Counted from the stretch's first letter, positions 10,403-56,041 are shown. The stretch: DNA of 64,000 nt from Promethearchaeota archaeon Loki_b32 (GCA_005223125.1 NJBH01000006.1:46316-110315); one strand, 5' to 3'. Translations and numbers: made by a program. The notes: generated from the letters alone by a model not told the origin.

Positions 10403-11755
10403 TTATTCATTATTTTTTTTCTTAAACTCTTCTTTAGGTCCTTTACAACCAGGACATTTGAAATCACCGGGTAGATCTTTAAAGAGGACTCCCATTTTAG
10501 ATTCATCATATTCTTTTCCGCAATTGTTGCATATATAAGTATATAATTCTAATAACTTTTTCAACTCATCAATGTCTACATCTTGTTCCATCTTGCTGTA
10601 TACATAAGACATAGCTTTATTTTCACCAAATAAGATAGCTCCTTTAAGTTTACTTTCTTTAAGAATTATTTTTTGATAACAACAATCTTTTTTATCAGCT
10701 TTTTTCAAAATTTCCCAAGCGCCACCTTCTTCCTTTGAAGGATCTATAATCCCTATCGAAGTTAATTCTAATCCAACAATTTTGAGTGTACTTTTAGGAG
10801 TTGTTCCTTTATAATCAACTTTTTTTAATCCAAGTACAGAAGAAGCAACAATTTTTGATTGTTCCATACACGCTGGAATAATGCCCCAGATTTGATTTTT
10901 ATATTCTATACAATCCCCAACAGCAAAGATATCTTTTTCGCTGGTTTCTAAAAATTTATTAACAATAATTCCCCTTTTTGTATCTAAATTTGCATCTTTA
11001 GCTAATTCATTCGTAGGCCTAATACCTGCTTGAATTAATATGATATCTCCTTTTATTATTTCCCCTCCTTTTAACATAATTCCAGATACTGTTCCATTTC
11101 CTATTATCTCTTCAGTGGTAGCATCTAAAACAACTTTAATTCCTCTACTTTCAATTTCATTTCTTAACATTCCACCACATTCTATATCTAACTGTCTTGG
11201 CAATAAACGAGGGAAAAATTCTACAACTGTTGTGTTTAAATTGTTATTATTCATTTGATTTGCTAATTCTAACCCAAGCAATCCACCACCAATTATGATT
11301 GCTTTTTTAGCATTTTTACTCTTAATAAAATCTTTTATCTCTAAAGCATCATCAATACTTCGTAAAGTAAATAAACCGGTCCTTTTATCTTTCATTTCAA
11401 CAGCATTCTTAATAGGAGGAATATTGGGGGTACTTCCGAGAGCTAAAACAAGTTTATCATATGCAATAGGGTCATCTTTACCCTCAATTTGAATTGTTTT
11501 ATTATTTGGATTGATTTTATTGATTTTTTTGTTTAAATGTAAATTTAACCGCTTGTTTTTATACCAATCTTCTTTAAAAACAATTAAATCATCAATAGTT
11601 ACTTTTTCAGATATCAATTCTGGTAAATTGACTCTTGTATAGTAAGGATATTTCTCTTGTGTATATATATCGATTTTTACATCATTATTGAGAGATCTTA
11701 TATTTTGAGCAGTAAAAGTCCCAGCTACATTATTCCCTATTATTACAACTTTCAT
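10403..11755 (-). CDS. NAD(P)H:rubredoxin oxidoreductase-like flavoprotein with fused C-terminal rubredoxin domain
   Basis: VVIIGNNVAG and IIGGGLLGLE dinucleotide loops, AVGDC; C-terminal CNNCG...CPGCKGPKEEF rubredoxin-type knuckles. Confidence 0.8.
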   Translation of the reverse strand: MKVVIIGNNVAGTFTAQNIRSLNNDVKIDIYTQEKYPYYTRVNLPELISEKVTIDDLIVFKEDWYKNKRLNLHLNKKINKINPNNKTIQIEGKDDPIAYDKLVLALGSTPNIPPIKNAVEMKDKRTGLFTLRSIDDALEIKDFIKSKNAKKAIIIGGGLLGLELANQMNNNNLNTTVVEFFPRLLPRQLDIECGGMLRNEIESRGIKVVLDATTEEIIGNGTVSGIMLKGGEIIKGDIILIQAGIRPTNELAKDANLDTKRGIIVNKFLETSEKDIFAVGDCIEYKNQIWGIIPACMEQSKIVASSVLGLKKVDYKGTTPKSTLKIVGLELTSIGIIDPSKEEGGAWEILKKADKKDCCYQKIILKESKLKGAILFGENKAMSYVYSKMEQDVDIDELKKLLELYTYICNNCGKEYDESKMGVLFKDLPGDFKCPGCKGPKEEFKKKNNE

Positions 11756-28712: not shown

Positions 28713-29261
28713 TTAGAAAACTGGAGATTTTTCAAAGAGAGCATATATCGTTGTTTTATATAATGTATAAATAAAACCTGGTGGTATGATATCTTTTATT
28801 TTTATAATAAGTTCATCAATGACCTTTTCAGTTAAATTTCGATCAAATGTTAAATCTGGATCAAATTTATGTAAAAAGATAGAAAAATCAATACCGTTTT
28901 TTATTTCAATTGAGTTTATCACTTTCTTCATGTATTCTAGCGCGATATGATAACGCTTAACGTCTTGGATATCAATTACATATATAATTTTACTTGTTCC
29001 CTTTATATACTTATTAAAATCGTTGAAATAATCATCAAGATACGCTTGCTGACCCCCAAGATCCCAAATAGAATATTTTGAATTTAAGACTTCAAAATCT
29101 TGCACATCAGGACCTTTCGTAGGCATTGGAGTGTTAAAAGCAGAGATACCCTTGATACCCTTCAAACAATTTAATATCGTTGTTTTCCCACTATTATCTA
29201 ATCCAATTAATACAATTTTAATTGAATCGACTCTTGATTCATTGGTTTTTAAAGTTTTCAT
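28713..29261 (-). CDS. Arf/Sar/Rag-like small GTPase
   Basis: G1 GLDNSGKTT (Arf-like GLDxAGKT), G3 WDLGGQ, G4 variant LHKFD. Confidence 0.8.
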   Translation of the reverse strand: MKTLKTNESRVDSIKIVLIGLDNSGKTTILNCLKGIKGISAFNTPMPTKGPDVQDFEVLNSKYSIWDLGGQQAYLDDYFNDFNKYIKGTSKIIYVIDIQDVKRYHIALEYMKKVINSIEIKNGIDFSIFLHKFDPDLTFDRNLTEKVIDELIIKIKDIIPPGFIYTLYKTTIYALFEKSPVF

Positions 29262-29300
29262 AATTAATCAAAAATATGTTTGAGCATTTTTTTTTAAGAG

Positions 29301-48111: not shown

Positions 48112-49266
48112 TTAATACTTTGAAGGCGTCTTAGTTTTAATTTTTGAGGGAGTCTTCGATTTAATTTTTCTTAAATCTCTTTCAAATTGTCTTTTTTCAT
48201 TTAGAAATCGTTGCTTATCTTTTTCTAATTTATTTCTTTCACGTTTAATAATATTTTTTTCGCTTTCTAAGTTTGATTTTCGTTTTTCTAATTGTCTATA
48301 TTCATTATTTAATCGTTTAAACTTTTCCTCTAAATTGGGAATTTTCCGGTTTAAGGACTGATACTTATTTTCTGCAGCTGGAACTTTTCTTTGTAATTCT
48401 TTTAATCTTGCCTCTTGTTGGCGTCTTCTTTTCTCCAACTCATTTGCATTTCTATCAGCTTTTTCTCTGGTCTTTTTTAGATCAACTTTTTTCTTGTTAA
48501 TCTCACGAGCTTTTAGATCTAAGTCTTGTTTTTTATATCGAGTTTTTTCTCTTTCTTCTTTTAATTTTTTCTTTTCATCAGAAATACGATTTTTTTCATC
48601 AATAATCTCTCTCCTTAAGCTATTGATTTCCCTATTTAAACGATCTCTTTCTTTATTTAGATCTTTAATTTCATTTCTTAAATCCATTAATTTATCTTCC
48701 AAATCATTAGTAGTTCTGTTCAAGGCATTTTCTCTTCTTTCCATACCAGGAAGTTTCGTTTTAATTTCCTTTAAGCGATCTTCTGTTCTTGCCTTTTCTT
48801 TCTCTAAATATTTTTTTTCATTTCCAATTTCTTCTCTAAGTTTATCTAATTTATCTTGAAATCTTTCCAATTCAGCATTTTTTTGATCTAATTCATCATT
48901 CTTTCTTCTGATTTTATCTTTAAATTGCCGTTCTTTTACATTTAACTCGTTTTTTTGTTGTTCTATTTCATTTTTCGCCACTTTTAATTCATTTCGCAGA
49001 TTATCTCGTTGTTCAAGAAGATTTTTAACTTCAAATTCTCTATCCTTTCTTTTTCTTTCAAGATCCTCAATATTATACTTATAAGCCTCAATTTGATTAA
49101 TTATTTTTTCCCATTCACTCTTCTCTTTATCCAGTTTGATTCTTTCTTTTTTTATTTTCTTAAGTAATTTTTTTTCTGGAATTGTTTCAAGTTCTTCCTC
49201 AGGTGTTTTTTCCCGAATTTCATATTTAGGAATTGGTTTGTCATCCATGTTATTTCTACAATTCAC
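48112..49266 (-). CDS. K/E/R-rich coiled-coil protein (archaeal coiled-coil protein type)
   Basis: Almost entirely heptad-like charged sequence, with an internal duplicated module RLKE(I/L)..K(L/V)P..E....LNR; the first ATG is at 49248 (track start is a GTG at 49266). Confidence 0.5.
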   Translation of the reverse strand: MNCRNNMDDKPIPKYEIREKTPEEELETIPEKKLLKKIKKERIKLDKEKSEWEKIINQIEAYKYNIEDLERKRKDREFEVKNLLEQRDNLRNELKVAKNEIEQQKNELNVKERQFKDKIRRKNDELDQKNAELERFQDKLDKLREEIGNEKKYLEKEKARTEDRLKEIKTKLPGMERRENALNRTTNDLEDKLMDLRNEIKDLNKERDRLNREINSLRREIIDEKNRISDEKKKLKEEREKTRYKKQDLDLKAREINKKKVDLKKTREKADRNANELEKRRRQQEARLKELQRKVPAAENKYQSLNRKIPNLEEKFKRLNNEYRQLEKRKSNLESEKNIIKRERNKLEKDKQRFLNEKRQFERDLRKIKSKTPSKIKTKTPSKY

Positions 49267-49454: not shown

Positions 49455-49877
49455 ATGAGTTTTGATGAAGAGGAAGAGTTTGACGAGGAATTCGACGAAG
49501 AAGATCTCGATGAAGAGTTAGATGAGCAGGATGAAGAAGAATTTGAGGATGAATTAGAAGAACCTTCTATAGTAGCATCTACTGAAGAGCCTGAATCTAA
49601 AACTCCAGCAACTAAAGTAATAGCTGAAGGGAAAAAAATTTCAGTCTATTTTATGTCAACTATAGGTCCCGGTGAAAAAAAACAAAAACTAGTTATAAAT
49701 ACAGGATATAGTGTTGGAGATATTAAGGAAACAGTAGCAAATTTATTTGGATTAGATCCTGCTGATTTTCATTTATCATCAAGTGGAATTACAATGGATG
49801 AGAGCTCATCTTTAAGAGATTATAATATAAGTGATGGAGACGATATACTTCTAATTCCCGCTAGTACAGCGGGCTAA
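49455..49877 (+). CDS. ubiquitin-like beta-grasp protein with acidic N-terminal extension, C-terminus ...IPASTAG-stop
   Basis: C-terminal ~80 aa collinear with 51741..52076; terminal Gly directly precedes the stop; D/E-rich first ~45 aa. Confidence 0.75.
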   Translation: MSFDEEEEFDEEFDEEDLDEELDEQDEEEFEDELEEPSIVASTEEPESKTPATKVIAEGKKISVYFMSTIGPGEKKQKLVINTGYSVGDIKETVANLFGLDPADFHLSSSGITMDESSSLRDYNISDGDDILLIPASTAG

Positions 49878-49927
49878 ATTTCTAGAAAAAGTAAAATTTT
49901 CAAAGCAAGGTTTTATTTTCTTCACTT

Positions 49928-50716
49928 TTATTTTTTTTTTAAGGGAATCAGCGCAATTTCATCATCATCATCAATTTTATAATCTTTAATTTGTGAGTTT
50001 TCATTTAATAATATCCCCCCAGAAGAGAGAAGAAAGTCTTCTAAATTATAATCAAATAATCTCCCAATTCTCTCTTTAATTGGCTTTATTATCTCAGTTG
50101 TATCGAGTATAATTATCTTTGTTTTCTCGCCTGGTTCAAGTAAAGATCTTACATAAACACGGATCCGGTCTTCCATTTCAATCAGTTTCATAGGTTGTGT
50201 ATAAAATACCTCCTCATCAGTGTTATCTCTGGTCTTCAACATATTTTCGATTAACGTTTTTCTCTCATTTTCATCGAAATATAACATTTCCCGGATAAAC
50301 AAGATTTTGTCCACTTTTGATAAATCTAATAGGTTTATTTTATCTAATTCTTCTTGACTAAAAACTGAAAAGATATATTTATCGATTATTGGTATATCCT
50401 TATAGGACTCGCTGGATTCAGTATAATCTTCTATTAAAGGTATGGCATCAATGTAATCTTCAATGATATCAACTTGTTTCCGTTTAATTAATTTTGAATC
50501 AGGTAAGATTTTTTTTTTCTTTATTTTTTCATCCCAACTACCTTTAGACTGTATAACTGTATATACTGTACTAGTAGATAAGATCGCAACGCTACCTACT
50601 GTTAGAATGAGAAATAAGAAGGAATTTTCTATACTGAATAAGAAAAATAGGAAATAGACCAAAATACAAACAGTATAAAGAGCGATGACACTTAAAATTC
50701 TATATTTATTTCTCAT
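49928..50716 (-). CDS. membrane-anchored protein with C-terminal ubiquitin-like domain (no terminal Gly)
   Basis: Two N-terminal TM helices. The C-terminal segment IKERIGRLFDYNLEDFLLSSGGILLNENSQIKDYKIDDDDEIALIP aligns with the free Ubls (LF..DF.LSSGGI..EN...DY..D.D.I.LIP) but ends LKKK. Confidence 0.6.
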   Translation of the reverse strand: MRNKYRILSVIALYTVCILVYFLFFLFSIENSFLFLILTVGSVAILSTSTVYTVIQSKGSWDEKIKKKKILPDSKLIKRKQVDIIEDYIDAIPLIEDYTESSESYKDIPIIDKYIFSVFSQEELDKINLLDLSKVDKILFIREMLYFDENERKTLIENMLKTRDNTDEEVFYTQPMKLIEMEDRIRVYVRSLLEPGEKTKIIILDTTEIIKPIKERIGRLFDYNLEDFLLSSGGILLNENSQIKDYKIDDDDEIALIPLKKK

Positions 50717-50795
50717 AACTTTTTAATTAGATTATTTTCTGAATTTAAAATATATATTTTTTCTTATAAAGATCTATGGAATAATTTTGGAGTTT

Positions 50796-51473
50796 TTAAT
50801 GTGACACACCCTGAATTGATTTTCTAACTTTAGAATAGTTTTTTGTATCTAATTGGAATACAATACGATTTTTAATTTTTTCAATTTTTATTAATTTCAA
50901 ATCTGTTAAAATGTCTATGTATTTTTTGATGGTACTATGATTCTTTTTCAAGCTGTTTGCAATTTCTGTAATTTTTAATGTTTTATTTTCTTTTTTCATA
51001 AAGTTAATTATTTTTTGGACAATTTTCTTTTTTAAATAATAATACAACTCGTCAAGTTCTGGATTTGAATCAAATTTAAAGAAGATTCTATGATTGTTAA
51101 TTTGTTTTGATCTTACAAATAGGAATTTTTCTAAACATGATAAATGCCATAAAGCTTGATTACTTCCCATATTTAGAGCTCTCATTATCTCATTAATATT
51201 AGAAGGATTCTTTTTTATATAGTTATAAATCTCATTTCGTTTTGGATGTTCAATAATATTATTTTTCATTAATCTTGTTCCTGGGATAATAACACGTTTT
51301 TTTATTAAATCTTTTAAAATTAATTCAATTCTATTCTCATTTATATTTGGATTATATCTAACTCTATTATTTATATACGATATGATTTCTTTGATTGAAA
51401 AGAACGTTTTTTTTGTTAAATACTCTTTTACTAATTCAAGAACGACAGATTTTGCATTATCCAGAGAACTCAT
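50796..51473 (-). CDS. tandem winged-helix protein (ArsR-like wHTH x2)
   Basis: KRNEIYNYIKKNPSNINEIMRALNMGSNQALWHLSCLEKFLFV and LKITEIANSLKKNHSTIKKYIDILTDLKLI. Confidence 0.55.
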   Translation of the reverse strand: MSSLDNAKSVVLELVKEYLTKKTFFSIKEIISYINNRVRYNPNINENRIELILKDLIKKRVIIPGTRLMKNNIIEHPKRNEIYNYIKKNPSNINEIMRALNMGSNQALWHLSCLEKFLFVRSKQINNHRIFFKFDSNPELDELYYYLKKKIVQKIINFMKKENKTLKITEIANSLKKNHSTIKKYIDILTDLKLIKIEKIKNRIVFQLDTKNYSKVRKSIQGVSH

Positions 51474-51740
51474 GAGCCTATACTTGTATTATGTTGATTT
51501 TTCTTGTTAAGTAATTATATATTCTCTCTAAAACAACATTTTTTGATTAATATATATTAATAGGCATTCATACAATTTATAATATAATTTCTAAAGAATC
51601 CTAATTTGCTCCTTCTCTTATTTTTGATAAAACCATTAAAAACTTCAAAATCATTCCAAAGGGTTTTATTATATCTTTTTAATGCGATTTTATTAAGTTT
51701 ACAAAAATAAAAAAATAAAAAAAAAAAGGATGTGTAATAA

Positions 51741-52076
51741 ATGAGTTTTGAAAATGAATTTGATGAGGATTTAGTTGGGAAGGAGCCTGTAAAATCTAAA
51801 ACTCCCGCATCTAAAACCCCTTCAACAGGAAAGAAATTGACTTTGTATTTCATGTCTACTATTGGACCCGGTGAAAAGAAGGAAAAATTAACAGTAAATA
51901 ACAATAATCGTGTGAGTGATATTAAACAAACACTTGGAAATTTATTTGGACTTAATCCAAACGATTTTCATTTATCATCTGGAGGTATTACAATGGATGA
52001 AAATAGCTACTTAAACGATTATAGTGTAAGTGATGGCGATGATATTCTTTTGATCCCTGCGAGTACTGCGGGGTAA
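51741..52076 (+). CDS. ubiquitin-like beta-grasp protein, C-terminus ...IPASTAG-stop
   Basis: Paralog of 49455..49877; first gene of the Ubl-E1-E2-JAMM-RING string. Confidence 0.8.
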   Translation: MSFENEFDEDLVGKEPVKSKTPASKTPSTGKKLTLYFMSTIGPGEKKEKLTVNNNNRVSDIKQTLGNLFGLNPNDFHLSSGGITMDENSYLNDYSVSDGDDILLIPASTAG

Positions 52077-52108
52077 ACTTATATAATTTTCTTCATAAAC
52101 TATAATAT

Positions 52109-52140
52109 AAGGGCGCTAAGCCCTTTAATTTTTTTTATTT
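52109..52140 (+). terminator. 6-bp GC-cored hairpin (AAGGGC-gctaa-GCCCTT) followed by a T-rich tract
   Basis: Read directly from the sequence, 33 nt after the Ubl stop and ahead of the E1 gene. Confidence 0.4.
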
Positions 52141-52155
52141 TTTTAATAATTATAA

Positions 52156-53391
52156 TTGGTGATTATATTGGGAAAGAGTTCAGATTTTTTTAGTAGAGGC
52201 CTGACATCGGAAGAGAGAAATTTATACGACCGCCAATTTAGGCTTGAGGGATGGTCTCAGAAACTAGTAAAAAACACTCGAGTTTTGATAGTTGGAGTTG
52301 GGGGATTAGGTTGCGAAATCGCAAAAAATCTGGCAATGTTAGGAATAGGACATTTAGATTTAGTAGATTTAGATATTATTGAACATTCAAACTTAAATCG
52401 CCAAATTTTATTTACGGGTGCTAAATTGGGGGAACCTAAAGCAATCGTGGCGGCAAAAAAATTAACTGAAATAAATCCAAATATTAATGTAAATGGTTAT
52501 CATACTTCCTTAGAGCGCCTAGATCCTGCAATATATAGAGCTGCTGACGTTATTATTGGAGGTCTTGACTCCATGAACGCTCGATTGAATTTAAACGCTC
52601 AATGTGTAAGATTTAGGAAACCACTAGTAGATGGAGGTGTGTCAGGTTATCATGGTCATGTCTACACGATTTTTCCATTCAAAAATGCATGTTATGAATG
52701 TAACCCGCTCCCTATAGCTGAAAGTGATGAGATGGCTGCATGTACTGTAGTAGGAATACCAAGAAAGAGGATTCACTGCATTTTTAAAGGAGATATGGCC
52801 TTTAAAGAAAAATTCGATAGGGATCCTAATCCAAAAAGTGTTGTTGATATTAAATTCATTCAAAAAGTTGCTAATGAATTAGTAAATAAACATAATTTTC
52901 TCCCGGAATATACTCAAGATGATATTGTAAAGATTATCGATAGACATGATCCAGGAATAATTACCATAAATGCTGTCATTTCAGCATTACAATCTCATGA
53001 AGCTATAAAAATCCTTCATTGGAAAAAAGGACATATAGGTTTAGGTGAACCAATAAAAACCTATGTTATTTTCAATGCAATGACAATGATGTTTTATCAT
53101 ATTGAAAAAAAAAGAAATCCAGAATGTTCCCAATGTGGAAAAAAAGTTCGAAGATTTGTCGTGAAATTAAGAGCACGTTCTCCATGTATTAATATAATCA
53201 AAGTATTAGAAAAACATGGTTTTAAGTTAGATCCTGATCTCGAACCCGTAATAACATTATTGGATTTTAATGATATTAAGATGATTGATCTAGAACAGAA
53301 TCCAATTGAAAATGGTTTAAGAAATTACGAATTTATGACTGCTGCAGGGTTTAAAGATGGAGAAATTTTTGTAACCTTAAAATTAAAATAA
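52156..53391 (+). CDS. ubiquitin-activating E1-like enzyme (ThiF/MoeB/Uba family); non-AUG start
   Basis: YDRQ..., VGVGGLGCEIAKNLAMLGIG, DLDIIEHSNLNRQ, Zn pairs CYEC / CSQC, candidate catalytic Cys in MAACTVVG. No in-frame ATG precedes the nucleotide loop (TTG 52156, GTG 52159 or TTG 52168). Confidence 0.85.
   Translation: MVIILGKSSDFFSRGLTSEERNLYDRQFRLEGWSQKLVKNTRVLIVGVGGLGCEIAKNLAMLGIGHLDLVDLDIIEHSNLNRQILFTGAKLGEPKAIVAAKKLTEINPNINVNGYHTSLERLDPAIYRAADVIIGGLDSMNARLNLNAQCVRFRKPLVDGGVSGYHGHVYTIFPFKNACYECNPLPIAESDEMAACTVVGIPRKRIHCIFKGDMAFKEKFDRDPNPKSVVDIKFIQKVANELVNKHNFLPEYTQDDIVKIIDRHDPGIITINAVISALQSHEAIKILHWKKGHIGLGEPIKTYVIFNAMTMMFYHIEKKRNPECSQCGKKVRRFVVKLRARSPCINIIKVLEKHGFKLDPDLEPVITLLDFNDIKMIDLEQNPIENGLRNYEFMTAAGFKDGEIFVTLKLK
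52158..52163 (+). promoter_or_regulatory. GGTGAT Shine-Dalgarno-like element at the E1 start region
   Basis: ataattGGTGATtataTTG; it overlaps the first two candidate starts and lies 4 nt before the TTG at 52168. Confidence 0.35.
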
Positions 53392-53473
53392 AAAATTAAT
53401 CTAAAAATGTTTTAAATAAAAAAGATTAATTGAAAAAAAATATTAATTATAATAAAAAAAAAGGGTTGAGAAT

Positions 53474-54001
53474 ATGAGTATAAGAAGTAGTAGAATCTCG
53501 CAAGATTTTGCGGGATTAAAAAAATTGTATAAACAAGGAACTATTATTCAGTTAAAACCATTTAATCCAAAAAGAAAGAGTATTGATCATTTAGCAATTA
53601 CTATTAAAGGACCTAAAGGTACTGTTTATGCAGGTGGTCTTTTTAAATTAGAAATGAAATTCCCTGCTCAGTATCCTAGACAACCACCTTTTGTAAGACT
53701 GCATACTCCAATCTGGCATCCAAATTTTTGGGCAAAACCAAGTGAATATAAAGGACAAAGAAATATTTGTTTAGCATTAGTAGATCCCTCCCTAACTGGT
53801 AAAAGAGGAGGGTGGAGTCCATCAAAAACAGCGGTTACCGTTGTTCAAGCAATAATTGCTATGTTAAACACACGAGGTAAATATGTAAATCCTACCGATG
53901 TTTTTAATAAAAAAGCTGCGATAGAGATGATGAAAAATCAGAAGTTTTTTGAGAAAAAAGTGAAGAATCTCGTGAAAAAGTATGCAAATAAAAAATGGTG
54001 A
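53474..54001 (+). CDS. ubiquitin-conjugating E2 (UBC fold)
   Basis: IKGPKGTVYAGGLFKLEMKFPAQYPRQPPFVRLHTPIWHPNF (HPN), catalytic Cys in GQRNICLAL, WSP, conserved C-terminal helices. Confidence 0.9.
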   Translation: MSIRSSRISQDFAGLKKLYKQGTIIQLKPFNPKRKSIDHLAITIKGPKGTVYAGGLFKLEMKFPAQYPRQPPFVRLHTPIWHPNFWAKPSEYKGQRNICLALVDPSLTGKRGGWSPSKTAVTVVQAIIAMLNTRGKYVNPTDVFNKKAAIEMMKNQKFFEKKVKNLVKKYANKKW

Positions 54002-54002
54002 T
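53997..54002 (+). promoter_or_regulatory. GGTGAT Shine-Dalgarno-like element embedded in the E2 stop region, 7 nt before the JAMM ATG
   Basis: aaaaaTGGTGAttactttaATG; the TGA of E2 is inside the element. Confidence 0.5.
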
Positions 54003-54009
54003 TACTTTA

Positions 54010-54822
54010 ATGGAGAATAAAGAATTAGCCAATAGTTCAATCAAAGACGTAATTAAAAAGAAGATAAAAGAAAAAATAAAACAAGAATTACTAGATGAAA
54101 TATGTGAAGAACTTAAATTAGAGGAAGAAGAATTAACAGAAGAGATTTGTTCAATGCTTACTAAAAAAACCTCTGCCAAACCAATAATAAAACTTTCTAA
54201 GATACCTACCGTCAAAATAGAAGAGAAAAAGCATGTTGAAATACAAATAGAAGAGGAAATACAAAAAGAAGTTTATATTTCAGTAAAAAGTATACTTAAA
54301 ATAGCAAGTCATGCGCTTAAATATGCAAATTCTAAGATTCGAAGAGAGAATTGGGTGGAAGTTATTGGGCTTCTAGCAGGAAAATTAGATAAAAACGAAA
54401 TACTCCATATTGAAGATGCTTACCCAATGGGGCATGGAACGGCTGTATATGCCGAAATTAAAGATTATAAGAATTATGTGAGGGCATTTAAAGATATTAA
54501 AAAACAGAGATTATTTATATGTGGATGGTATCATAGTCATCCTTCATATGGTCTTTTTATGAGTAATGAAGATATGGGCACTCAAGCAAGATATCAAACA
54601 CTTTGGGATAAAGCAGTTGCTCTTGTTGTTGATCCATACCTAATTGACGGTACTTCACCAGGCTTTGAGATTTATAGCGCTAATTTGAAATCAAAAACAT
54701 GGTATCCATTATTATACGGGATTAAAGGGTCATTAGATGTAAGAATGTTACCTGAAATATTGAAATTTATGCATCCCCTCATTGAAGGAAAGCCAGTATA
54801 TCTTGAATATGATGAAGATTAA
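54010..54822 (+). CDS. JAB1/MPN/Mov34 (JAMM) metalloprotease, Rpn11/CSN5-like deubiquitinase with charged N-terminal extension
   Basis: EVIGLLAG (Glu), GWYHSHPSYGLFMSNED (HxHx7Sx2D). ATG 54010 is preferred because of the SD; the track start 53995 is in frame and also possible. Confidence 0.85.
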   Translation: MENKELANSSIKDVIKKKIKEKIKQELLDEICEELKLEEEELTEEICSMLTKKTSAKPIIKLSKIPTVKIEEKKHVEIQIEEEIQKEVYISVKSILKIASHALKYANSKIRRENWVEVIGLLAGKLDKNEILHIEDAYPMGHGTAVYAEIKDYKNYVRAFKDIKKQRLFICGWYHSHPSYGLFMSNEDMGTQARYQTLWDKAVALVVDPYLIDGTSPGFEIYSANLKSKTWYPLLYGIKGSLDVRMLPEILKFMHPLIEGKPVYLEYDED

Positions 54823-54836
54823 AACAGAAGAATTTT

Positions 54837-54842
54837 GGTGAT
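54837..54842 (+). promoter_or_regulatory. GGTGAT Shine-Dalgarno-like element 8 nt upstream of the membrane RING-like gene
   Basis: ttttGGTGATtttagactATG. Confidence 0.5.
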
Positions 54843-54850
54843 TTTAGACT

Positions 54851-56041
54851 ATGGCAAAATTTAAATCGGTAGTAATTTTTCTAGCGATATTTTGCTTAAT
54901 TGGTATAATCCATGGTGCTCTTCTAAATTCAATTAATGTTTTTGTAACTTGGTTGTTAATTGGAATTTGGTTAATTTATTCTTTCAAAGTTCTAAAAAAT
55001 ATCAAACAATATCGTGAATTTAATTCTCCTCATAATACTGCTTTTTTTACCATTGGTCCTGTTTTAATGGGAATTTTTTATTCAGTGTGGAGTAATTTCA
55101 CAGGTTTATTAGGAGAAAATCTTTTAGAAAGTACAGATTTATATTTAAGTTGGTGGAGTATACTATTTGGATTTCCCTATATATTATATGGTTCGATTTC
55201 TTTATACCGTTGTTTTAAAAAGTATAATGTAATACATTTTAGAAGGAAATCAATAAAAGCACGCACATTTGGTTTTATTTTAGGAATCTCCATTCTCCTG
55301 TTTATAATTATATACTGGATAAGTTTTTATTCAATTATAGACTTTTATGAATCTTTAATAACACCTCTCCATTTTTTAATAGATCTCAATCTATTAATAT
55401 TACTTATCAGTACTATACTACTATTAATAGTCCCTGGCTTGTTTGGTGCTCAAACTCCATTACCTCAACTAACTAGAGATTACATAGCAAGACGTACAAG
55501 CAGATTAAACAATTTAACATCACCCACCCCTAATCGACAAAGACAAACTGTTCGTACTACAACTAGATCATCTCCAACACCTTCAACAAGAACAGTTGCT
55601 CGCACAACAAGATCAGTTTCTCGTTCTGCAAGATCAACGCCTACAACAAATAGATATTCTACAAGCTCTAGAGAAAAAAAAACTACTCAAACTGTAGGCA
55701 GAAGAGCAACAGGACCAGTGCGAAGAAAAAAAACTGTTACAAAAATAAGCAATTTCAATTTATATAAACCAAAAGCAGCACGTCTTTCAACAGAGGATTT
55801 TAAATGTATTTTTTGTTTTAAGTTACCAGAATATCCTAAAGATAATGGTAGAGGAATAATATTGTGTCCAAAATGTAAATACCCCGCTCATGCTGACGAA
55901 TTTAAAGATTGGCTTCAAAGTTCTAACCTATGTTCTCGGTGTAATACACCAATTCCCTCAAGCTTTAGAAGAAATCCTAAAACCATAAGTGTAAAAAATT
56001 ATATAATCGTCATTAAGCATTTTGTAAGTAATAGGAGATGA
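54851..56041 (+). CDS. polytopic membrane protein with R/S/T/P-rich linker and C-terminal RING-like zinc finger (candidate E3)
   Basis: ~6 TM helices; ~80-aa low-complexity basic linker; CIFC-x16-CPKC-x4-H-x13-CSRC. Confidence 0.65.
   Translation: MAKFKSVVIFLAIFCLIGIIHGALLNSINVFVTWLLIGIWLIYSFKVLKNIKQYREFNSPHNTAFFTIGPVLMGIFYSVWSNFTGLLGENLLESTDLYLSWWSILFGFPYILYGSISLYRCFKKYNVIHFRRKSIKARTFGFILGISILLFIIIYWISFYSIIDFYESLITPLHFLIDLNLLILLISTILLLIVPGLFGAQTPLPQLTRDYIARRTSRLNNLTSPTPNRQRQTVRTTTRSSPTPSTRTVARTTRSVSRSARSTPTTNRYSTSSREKKTTQTVGRRATGPVRRKKTVTKISNFNLYKPKAARLSTEDFKCIFCFKLPEYPKDNGRGIILCPKCKYPAHADEFKDWLQSSNLCSRCNTPIPSSFRRNPKTISVKNYIIVIKHFVSNRR

Follow-up and report, generated by a model that had tools for sequence, protein, structure and literature searches.

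The accepted forerunners of eukaryotic ubiquitylation are compact operons, known from Aigarchaeota and Asgard archaea, in which E1, E2, RING and Rpn11 genes stand together. Here we describe a cluster of this kind in a 64 000-nucleotide stretch of DNA from Promethearchaeota archaeon Loki_b32 (GCA_005223125.1, NJBH01000006.1:46316-110315), called the window below. The cluster has eight genes at positions 49455-56041; the five at 51741-56041 make up an operon for a ubiquitin-like protein (Ubl), an activating enzyme (E1), a conjugating enzyme (E2), a JAMM/MPN+ isopeptidase and a membrane protein, P8, with a predicted RING-type domain, which we regard as a candidate ligase (E3). The presence of a six-helix membrane RING protein in the operon, as modelled, suggests protein tagging at the cell membrane in these relatives of eukaryotes.

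The core Ub-E1-E2-RING-Rpn11 operon is already established in Aigarchaeota, Caldiarchaeum among them, and in Asgard archaea, and the initial annotation of the window rightly did not present it as new. In Caldiarchaeum subterraneum the operon encodes ubiquitin, an E1-like and an E2-like protein, a small RING finger protein (srfp) and an Rpn11-like protein; it was reconstituted in vitro, and its pro-ubiquitin is trimmed by its Rpn11 (PMC5654768, PMC6043591). The Loki locus encodes the same five functional classes together. The solved structure nearest to its JAMM protein is the Caldiarchaeum Rpn11-like protease (6fjv, 4.5e-17), followed by Rpn11, CSN5 and AMSH; also, precursor Ubls with short C-terminal extensions, comparable to Caldiarchaeum pro-ubiquitin, are found in relatives of the Loki locus.

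There are differences as well. The candidate E3 of the Loki locus is a membrane protein of 396 residues with six helices, whereas that of Caldiarchaeum is a small soluble RING protein; the Loki Ubl ends with Ala-Gly rather than Gly-Gly. Unlike in Caldiarchaeum, this Ubl has an N-terminal extension of 30-60 residues, the JAMM gene is inside the operon and co-directional with it, and the RING domain has Glu at ligand position 6.

Another eukaryote-type Asgard cascade, the E1/E2/RING-E3 cascade of Helarchaeia, mono-ubiquitylates UEV-Vps23 (bioRxiv 10.1101/2023.07.25.550441), and ubiquitin-dependent sorting by the ESCRT complexes was documented in vitro for Asgard proteins (PMC9192718; bioRxiv 10.1101/2023.07.25.550441). 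The ubiquitin region of Lokiarchaeota is located apart from the ESCRT region (PMC9192718), which fits the locus considered here: within 10 kb of it we found no ESCRT genes, and no Cdc48 or proteasome genes.

The survey of Asgard E3 proteins relied on InterPro entry IPR018611 only (PMC9192718); a P8-like protein, having no profile match, would be overlooked by it, and the E3 of the Lokiarchaeia-type operon would be missed by domain-based annotation. Neither a membrane-anchored RING of an Asgard operon nor an Ala-Gly tail appears in PMC9192718, PMC5654768, PMC11354881, PMC13328587 or the UEV-Vps23 preprint; in the whole of the literature searched, a search that missed the Nature descriptions of 2015 and 2017, we met no description of a membrane-embedded RING in the operon, of the Ala-Gly terminus or of a membrane-anchored protein with a ubiquitin-like (UBL) domain.

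Conjugation module at 51741-56041

All eight open reading frames (ORFs) were recovered at the coordinates given by the initial annotation (Table 1), and Pfam agreed with its domain calls for the Ubl, E1, E2, JAMM and winged-helix proteins. The five genes of the operon are packed tightly, with intergenic gaps from -7 to 82 nt, and all run in one direction. Judged by Pfam models, by matches to solved structures and by catalytic motifs, the cluster at 51741-56041 is a real and complete eukaryote-type Ubl-E1-E2-JAMM module. The catalytic motifs (HPN and Cys in E2, E/HxHx7Sx2D in JAMM, GVGGLG and Cys in E1) were all located.

The E1 has the GVGGLG nucleotide loop at residue 47, a candidate catalytic Cys196 within AACTVV, and CxxC pairs at 179 and 324. 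Its best solved relative is the SUMO E1 Uba2 (1.8e-40), with Uba1 and Uba3 next, and with MoeB (1.3e-32) and ThiF (∼5e-26) behind; in the alignment Cys196 falls on the Cys of Uba2's FPGCTIRN segment. The translation start, at a TTG without an in-frame ATG close by, is uncertain. At the other end the protein carries an extension of ∼80 residues; its C-terminal 100 residues, searched against PDB sequences for a ubiquitin-fold domain, produced nothing significant.

In the E2 we found HPN (residues 82-84), Cys99 and WSP (114-116); HPN and Cys99 are invariant in the family, and the retained WSP loop supports the idea of a contact between E2 and RING. The PDB matches are Ubc15, Ube2R and Ubc13, at ∼1e-14. 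The protein had been called a textbook E2, which is true of the UBC fold, the HPN triad and the catalytic Cys but not of the spacing: 14 residues lie between Asn84 and Cys99, an insertion of 7 residues compared with Ubc15 that is conserved in the family. The sequence of the insertion region, FW[AP]KPxEYxGxRN (53717-53770, residues ∼82-99), is invariant from Lokiarchaeia through Heimdallarchaeota LC_3.

The JAMM protein begins with a Lys/Glu-rich extension of ∼90 residues, and its motif consists of E122 and H180-S-H-x7-S-x2-D193. Each of the E1, E2 and JAMM proteins is nearer to eukaryotic or Caldiarchaeum enzymes than to the prokaryotic alternatives, MoeB/ThiF or models of defence systems.

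P8, a candidate membrane-embedded E3

The last gene of the operon had been described as coding for a membrane protein with a RING-like finger, and modelling bears this out. P8 has no Pfam or NCBIfam match, and every one of its ∼400 database relatives is named ‘hypothetical protein’. A first AlphaFold model, built with 64 close homologues, had mean pLDDT (predicted local distance difference test) of 55.7 and was not usable. For the AlphaFold2 model used here the alignment was made of diverse relatives gathered by a profile of the C-terminal 94 residues; its mean pLDDT is 85.6. In the model, six transmembrane helices are followed by a disordered linker and a C-terminal beta-beta-alpha domain with additional helices; the fourth loop contains a beta-hairpin.

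The helices span residues 2-25, 28-56, 64-80, 101-123, 137-162 and 179-197. Lys and Arg gather at the N-terminus, in loops 46-63 and 119-138, and past helix 6, while the remaining loops are acidic; by the positive-inside rule both termini should be inside, with the C-terminal domain in the cytoplasm. The best-conserved parts of the membrane domain are the two cytoplasmic loops, 46-63 (NSPHNT) and 119-138 (the beta-hairpin, with 8 Lys/Arg).

Matches to the PFF1_TM model, the membrane domain of a vacuolar protease, in 6 of 62 members of the P8 family were judged compositional and rejected; the one that was located falls on the Ser/Thr-rich disordered linker and scores 16.8 bits versus the cut-off of 32.3. 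The linker itself is ∼75-100 residues long and differs in length and sequence among relatives.

At the C-terminus, residues 301-393 form a compact beta-beta-alpha domain (pLDDT >93) with the ligand pattern C319-x2-C322-x16-C339-P-x-C342-x4-H347-x2-E350-x3-W354-x6-C361-x2-C364. Across 62 diverse sequences of the family (down to 17% identity) there is no change at the six Cys, at His347 or at Trp354, and 61 of them have Glu350. Soluble relatives have His at the same position (AHxxHFxxWL), which puts Glu at the sixth ligand position; the finger thus consists of seven canonical ligands and a conserved Glu instead of eight Cys/His. With Glu at this position zinc site 1 may be altered or lost; the AlphaFold model carries no metals.

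When the whole model was compared with the PDB by Foldseek, the top 50 matches were mostly RING and U-box domains, with probability up to 0.98 and target TM-score of 0.5-0.77. The majority were E3 ligases (Ring1b/Bmi1, LubX, HRD1, CHIP, Prp19, RNF146, Rad18, TRIM32) and some were structural RINGs (GATOR2, IFT-A). According to the model, the C-terminus of P8 is a domain of RING/U-box fold. The proposed fold comparison thus gave a RING/U-box fold for one part of P8 but no match for the other: for residues 1-200 no Pfam, PDB-sequence or Foldseek match was found, hence none to Hrd1 or Doa10.

Among 1.84 billion proteins the profile of the RING domain recovered 116 clusters only; nearly all of these proteins have 340-465 residues and carry the domain at the C-terminus. 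The weakest matches (E = 1e-4 to 1e-7) were small or multi-domain proteins that pass the Pfam zf-RING_2 threshold (28-45 bits versus 27.3), and in the full-length P8 family we saw matches below threshold to zf-RING_2 (12 of 62) and Prok-RING_1 (13 of 62).

The residue after the first Cys of the finger, Ile320 in P8, is Ile, Met or Leu in 60 of 62 members. We take Ile320 and Trp354 to be the E2-contact positions of canonical RINGs, as in the c-Cbl-UbcH7 interface.

Ubl proteins and the Ala-Gly terminus

The cluster encodes two free Ubls: Ubl-1 (P4), the first gene of the operon, and Ubl-2 (P1), upstream of it. P4 consists of an acidic/Lys-rich N-terminal extension of ∼30 residues and a predicted beta-grasp domain, and it ends with IPASTAG directly before the stop codon, that is, it is encoded in mature form. 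P1 has the same end, and its predicted beta-grasp domain is preceded by a strongly acidic extension of ∼60 residues. The paralogy of P1 and P4 is visible in local alignment, as is the shared terminus IPAS[TIV]AG; relatives of P1 end with STAG, SIAG or SVAG, some being extended further.

The Ubl genes of related loci all carry the motif IP[AHVS]S[TIVQ]AG (145 of 145). In 107 of them Gly is the exact C-terminus; the other 38 continue for 1-8 residues, such as YF, RLI, TFK, KLI or KVFQIFLK. A C-terminal di-glycine was found in none of the 145 homologues; only the final Gly is shared with di-Gly termini. Variable extensions after an invariant Gly are a signature of a processing and conjugation site, and this is good comparative evidence that the Gly of Ala-Gly is the activated, mature end of the protein. 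The Ala-Gly tails reported for this locus are thus real at both free Ubls but not peculiar to it.

The tails ahead of the beta-grasp domains are predicted to be disordered (51741-51840 in P4, ∼30 residues with 6 Lys; 49455-49640 in P1, ∼60 residues, nearly all Asp/Glu), and they recall the tail of SUMO more than ubiquitin. One could speculate that chains are formed on these tails.

Conservation across Asgard archaea

We scanned one genome per species and found such an E2 in 188 genomes; the best 80 loci, all of them Lokiarchaeia-type, were examined. Over the cluster region DNA identity is 97.5% to GCA_023705845.1, GCA_023131085.1 and one ENA metagenome (Lokiarchaeia-type Promethearchaeota contigs) and 78-80% to the remaining species of the Lokiarchaeia-type group. 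The E2 family, with proteins of 175 residues that are 60-97% identical, includes Helarchaeota, Sigynarchaeum and Heimdallarchaeota LC_3.

The JAMM and P8 genes come directly after E2 in all 71 loci with enough downstream sequence, and the complete eight-gene order is kept in 55 loci. Comparison with more distant genomes showed that the five-gene order Ubl-E1-E2-JAMM-TM-RING (TM, transmembrane) is conserved: Ubl-E1-E2-JAB-TM-RING in a Helarchaeota contig, Ubl-Ubl-E1-E2-JAB-TM-RING in GCA_048882505 and Ubl-Ubl-E1-E2-JAB-(hydrolase)-TM-RING in Heimdallarchaeota LC_3. The P8 homologues of these three loci are 23-43% identical to P8 of the window, with all ligand positions kept. Its presence in Loki, Hel and Heimdall loci makes the TM-RING protein a core part of an operon that is widespread in Asgard archaea, and no local oddity. 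The membrane-tethered candidate E3, which had been offered as a possible novelty of the locus, is therefore real, but it represents the conserved state of the operon. The gene inserted in LC_3 between JAMM and TM-RING (L006:9438-10190) encodes an alpha/beta-hydrolase of 250 residues.

The chromosomal flanks of the locus are housekeeping genes, and its position is fixed in ∼60 species. The same locus was also seen in metagenome-assembled genomes (MAGs) labelled Hodarchaeota, Odinarchaeota, Hermodarchaeota, Thorarchaeota and ‘Nanopelagicaceae bacterium’ (DATKTW010000176.1). In these MAGs (L010, L012, L017, L037, L038, L063, L075 and others) the E2 is 88-97% identical and synteny is that of Lokiarchaeia; their organism labels or contig binning look unreliable.

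Genes upstream of the operon

The three proteins expected immediately upstream, a second Ubl (P1), a membrane-anchored UBL-domain protein (P2) and a tandem winged-helix protein (P3), were all found. P2 starts with two hydrophobic helices and a Lys-rich stretch; a conserved middle region follows, then a C-terminal UBL domain whose paralogy to P1 and P4 is clear and whose last residues are ...ALIPLKKK. The Lys-rich stretch after the helices indicates that the C-terminus should be cytoplasmic. Orthologues of P2 (63 unique) end with ALIP[LS]-[RK]-K-[KE] or in an IPSRKE-like manner, none of them with Ala-Gly; P2 is therefore a membrane-fixed, non-conjugatable UBL. The P2 family has 385 clusters; the best 120 of the 385 all have a length of ∼264 residues, and those among them that bear a name derive from Lokiarchaeia-type MAGs.

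P3, transcribed divergently from the operon, has two ArsR/HrcA-type winged helix-turn-helix domains, and 64 orthologues show almost no variation in its recognition-helix region, GSNQALWHLSCLEKF. Comparison with PDB sequences revealed nothing significant. P3 is probably a DNA-binding regulator. Alignment of 63 unique orthologues of the region between the P3 and Ubl-1 genes showed two conserved blocks, ∼51551-51588 and ∼51635-51680, with TATA-like elements, in surroundings that are ∼78% identical only; we consider these blocks candidate promoter or operator sites.

Unrelated genes on the flanks (nucleotidyltransferase, coiled-coil protein, GTP cyclohydrolase, amidohydrolase) are just as syntenic as P1-P3. 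In CP070831.1 and JBHLNB010000039.1 rearrangements part P1-P3 from the operon, and the block remains with the upstream flank; in CP070805.1 P2 adjoins a truncated P3, with no P1. With the flanks equally syntenic and the block following the upstream flank, the adjacency of P1-P3 is not independent evidence of function, and we rejected synteny as proof of a functional link. P2 and P3 were absent from the Helarchaeota, Heimdallarchaeota LC_3 and GCA_048882505 loci. By this distribution P1-P3 is a Lokiarchaeia-specific add-on to the operon. The composition of three UBLs and two membrane anchors, offered earlier as possibly new, is real in all its parts, but only the upstream P1-P3 part is specific to the lineage.

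Beside the displaced P3-P2-P1 block of CP070831.1 (L089:4288-4985) there is an extra copy of Ubl with a 91-residue fragment of the E1 N-terminus, at 82% identity. It looks like a scar of duplication or rearrangement with a breakpoint inside the E1 gene; the intact operon of this genome is ∼100 kb away from the displaced block.

Table 1. Features of the eight-gene cluster and of P8, in window coordinates
Feature	Coordinates	Strand	Evidence
Ubl-2 (P1, 140 aa)	49455-49877	+	Pfam ubiquitin 25.8 bits, cut-off 25.4; paralogue of P4
Membrane-anchored UBL protein P2 (262 aa)	49928-50716	-	Hydropathy; paralogy to P1/P4; ubiquitin 22.3 bits, just under the 25.4 cut-off
Tandem winged-helix protein P3 (225 aa)	50796-51473	-	HTH_5 3.3e-8 and HrcA_DNA-bdg 3.6e-6, above threshold
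P3/Ubl-1 divergent intergenic region (267 bp)	51474-51740	.	Two conserved non-coding blocks
Ubl-1 (P4, 111 aa)	51741-52076	+	Pfam ubiquitin 26.4 bits, gathering cut-off 25.4
E1 activating enzyme (∼410 aa)	52156-53391	+	ThiF E = 1.4e-61
E2 conjugating enzyme (175 aa)	53474-54001	+	UQ_con E = 3.6e-26
JAMM/MPN+ isopeptidase (275 aa)	53995-54822	+	JAB E = 1.5e-15; 7-nt overlap with E2 gene
TM-RING protein P8 (396 aa), candidate membrane-embedded E3	54851-56041	+	AlphaFold2 model; operon position
P8 membrane domain, six helices, N-in/C-in	54851-55441	+	Model pLDDT >95; charge distribution
P8 linker, disordered, Thr/Arg/Ser-rich	55526-55750	+	pLDDT <50; T20, R15, S11 of 75
P8 RING-type domain	55796-55960	+	Ligand pattern; fold matches; zf-RING_2 in distant relatives

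Proposed mechanism and alternative explanations

We think it rather probable that the five genes specify a cascade that conjugates the Ubl at the cell membrane, on the cytoplasmic side. The Ubl would be made ready for use, ending with Ala-Gly; in some relatives a precursor would be trimmed to that Gly. The E1 would adenylate the terminal Gly and load the Ubl on Cys196, and the E2 would take it onto Cys99. P8 would sit in the membrane by its six helices, with both ends cytoplasmic and the domain of RING/U-box fold on a flexible tether of ∼100 residues; its RING would recruit E2~Ubl and promote passage of the Ubl to lysines of proteins in or near the membrane, perhaps of P8 itself. The Rpn11-like JAMM protein would strip the tag and, where Ubl precursors are extended, mature them. 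Ubl-2, with its acidic tail, could serve in Lokiarchaeia as a second conjugatable modifier; P2 would most plausibly be a fixed docking site where a Ubl-binding component, be it E1, E2, JAMM or a receptor, attaches to the membrane, and P3 a winged-helix regulator of transcription.

Several observations weigh against this scheme. The terminal dipeptide is Ala-Gly, not Gly-Gly; we infer that an E1 of this family accepts it. Glu occupies one of the eight ligand positions of the P8 finger, and P8 itself passes no curated RING profile of Pfam. Searching with the entire 396-residue model left the Foldseek E-values weak (0.09-2). By sequence the finger comes closest, among solved structures, to the non-catalytic zinc fingers of IFT144 (E = 0.008-0.06), the only, and marginal, matches of the RING-domain profile to PDB sequences; this likeness would make a purely structural role of the finger possible. 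Also, the tie of P1-P3 to the operon, provided by UBL paralogy and by tandem Ubls ending with Ala-Gly in distant relatives, looks limited.

The cascade may be real and P8 not its E3: the finger would be non-catalytic, P8 would be a membrane receptor, a scaffold or a main substrate, and conjugation would either need no E3 or use a soluble RING protein from another locus. Besides the IFT144 fingers as sole PDB sequence matches, the structural RINGs of GATOR2 and IFT-A among the fold matches and the metal ligand replaced by Glu, one could point to the small soluble relatives from metagenomes, which have a full C4H2C2 set and pass zf-RING_2, and to the Caldiarchaeum E1 and E2, which auto-modify without an E3 (PMC5654768). 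We nevertheless consider this unlikely, as the P8 gene trails E1-E2-JAMM at all loci examined, be it Loki, Hel or Heimdall, as Ile320 and Trp354 are no less conserved than the ligands, and as active E3 RING/U-box domains make up the majority of fold matches. Two other readings of the operon fare worse. In favour of a sulfur-carrier pair of the MoaD/ThiS/Urm1/SAMP type, as the main role of Ubl and E1, are the matches of the E1 to MoeB and ThiF models (∼1e-43) and the single-Gly or non-GG termini known among sulfur carriers; however, a canonical UBC E2 and a JAMM isopeptidase are encoded in the same operon together with a RING protein, the E1 has no rhodanese domain and is nearer to Uba2, Uba1 and Uba3, and no molybdopterin or thiamine biosynthesis genes were seen among the neighbours of the cluster. 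Such a pair is very improbable. We give almost no credence to an antiviral Ubl-conjugation system of the Bil or the CBASS (cyclic oligonucleotide-based antiphage signalling system) Cap2/Cap3 kind in place of a housekeeping modifier. Its appeal lies in the gene content (Ubl, E1, E2 and JAB, like Bil operons) and in the match of the E1 to CBASS E1-E2 models of PADLOC, 6.5e-18, which covers the adenylation domain only; yet this is far below the match to eukaryotic E1, the PADLOC matches of E2 (0.003) and JAB (0.001) are marginal, no effector gene is present at the locus, and its fixed place among housekeeping genes is unlike that of a defence island. On the weak PADLOC scores, on the company of E2, JAMM and RING genes and on context, both the defence-system and the sulfur-carrier readings were rejected.

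It is possible, though we would not favour it, that P1-P3 do not belong to the module, their adjacency being due to shared chromosome ancestry, with P3 an unrelated regulator and P1 and P2 members of another pathway. The equal synteny of unrelated flanks at the same loci, the separation of the block from the operon by rearrangement in three genomes, where it stays with the upstream flank, and the absence of P2 and P3 from the Hel, Heimdall LC_3 and GCA_048882505 loci all point this way. On the other hand, P1 is a close paralogue of the operon Ubl with an identical IPAS[TIV]AG terminus and so almost certainly needs the same E1; the UBL domain of P2 is in the same paralogous group; Heimdall LC_3 and GCA_048882505 too have tandem Ubls ending with Ala-Gly before E1; and the divergent intergenic region between P3 and the Ubl gene is conserved.

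As to the fate of the proteins tagged by the membrane cascade that we favour, the initial annotation spoke of an ERAD-like system (ERAD, endoplasmic reticulum-associated degradation) in place of a soluble one that feeds the proteasome. This term derives from the membrane anchoring alone and, as a label, fits the architecture reasonably well; ESCRT-type sorting would be equally possible as ERAD-type extraction and degradation.

Comparison with eukaryotic membrane proteins

P8 has in common with Hrd1, Doa10/MARCH6, MARCH RING-CH proteins, RNF145 and TMEM129 a polytopic membrane domain combined with a cytosolic RING, an arrangement that would place E2~Ub at the membrane surface, and the RING of HRD1 is among its fold matches. 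The spacing C-x2-C...C-x2-C-x4-H-x2-[E]...C-x2-C together with Trp presumably recalls the C4HC3 pattern of RING-CH/PHD. However, no homology of the P8 membrane domain to eukaryotic membrane E3s was detectable with Pfam, PDB and Foldseek. Unlike these E3s, P8 carries its RING at the C-terminus, behind a long linker that is basic and disordered, and with Glu as ligand 6, and no Cdc48-recruiting or luminal-recognition partners are encoded near P8.

The fingers of IFT144/WDR19 and GATOR2, which also came up in the fold search, share with P8 the pattern CPxC[KR][YF]PA...CxxC. Unlike P8, they are structural parts of coat-like complexes with no linkage to E1/E2 genes, the E-values being marginal as given above.

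Membrane-tethered UBLs of eukaryotes, such as the membrane-anchored ubiquitin-fold proteins (MUBs) of plants and animals, HERP/Usa1 and TMUB1, dock E2s, E3s or Cdc48/proteasome factors. Like MUB, HERP and TMUB1, P2 combines a membrane anchor with a cytosolic ubiquitin fold that has no terminal Gly; it differs in that its anchor consists of two N-terminal helices, as opposed to prenylation, and in that its UBL is a recent paralogue of the conjugatable Ubl of the same locus.

Other features of the window

The window is AT-rich, with G+C content of ∼30%. No RNA families were found in it by Rfam, and no exact-sequence records were found for the E1 (with its TTG start) or for the ORF at 10403-11755.

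The gene at 48112-49266 (- strand), next to the cluster on its upstream side, encodes a coiled-coil protein of 384 residues that is rich in Lys and Glu. In the Helarchaeota locus a similar coiled-coil gene for 367 residues (L007:4893-5996) is divergent and directly upstream of Ubl. The likeness of these genes may be compositional, and any link to the ubiquitin system would be tentative.

A gene for an Arf/Roc-family small GTPase, a eukaryotic signature protein unrelated to the cluster, was mapped at ∼28721-29269 (- strand) from L092:5734-6282; its neighbours encode a response regulator and a sensor kinase, large and of the PAS/HisKA type.

Implications

The locus defines a simple five-protein set with unusual chemistry: an Ala-Gly terminus and Glu at a RING ligand position. 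Conjugates of an Ala-Gly Ubl would escape standard di-Gly remnant proteomics; the last Lys or Arg of the Ubl is ∼50 residues away from its end, and trypsin would leave no remnant of the di-Gly kind.

One could speculate further, and only tentatively, that the core operon of Asgard archaea, common to Lokiarchaeia, Helarchaeota and Heimdallarchaeota LC_3, always held a dedicated membrane RING ligase whose six-helix domain escaped domain-based annotation; the ancestral ubiquitin system would then have been membrane-centred, marking membrane proteins either for extraction and degradation or for sorting by ESCRT, a prokaryotic antecedent of membrane-protein ubiquitylation of the ERAD or multivesicular body (MVB) type, with an Ala-Gly modifier and, in Lokiarchaeia, a decoy UBL fixed in the membrane for docking. 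If P8 is an active membrane RING ligase, the ubiquitin system of Asgard archaea would have been wired to the membrane from the start, and this would bear on the origin of ubiquitin-dependent quality control and sorting of membrane proteins, both by ERAD and by the endocytosis/MVB route.

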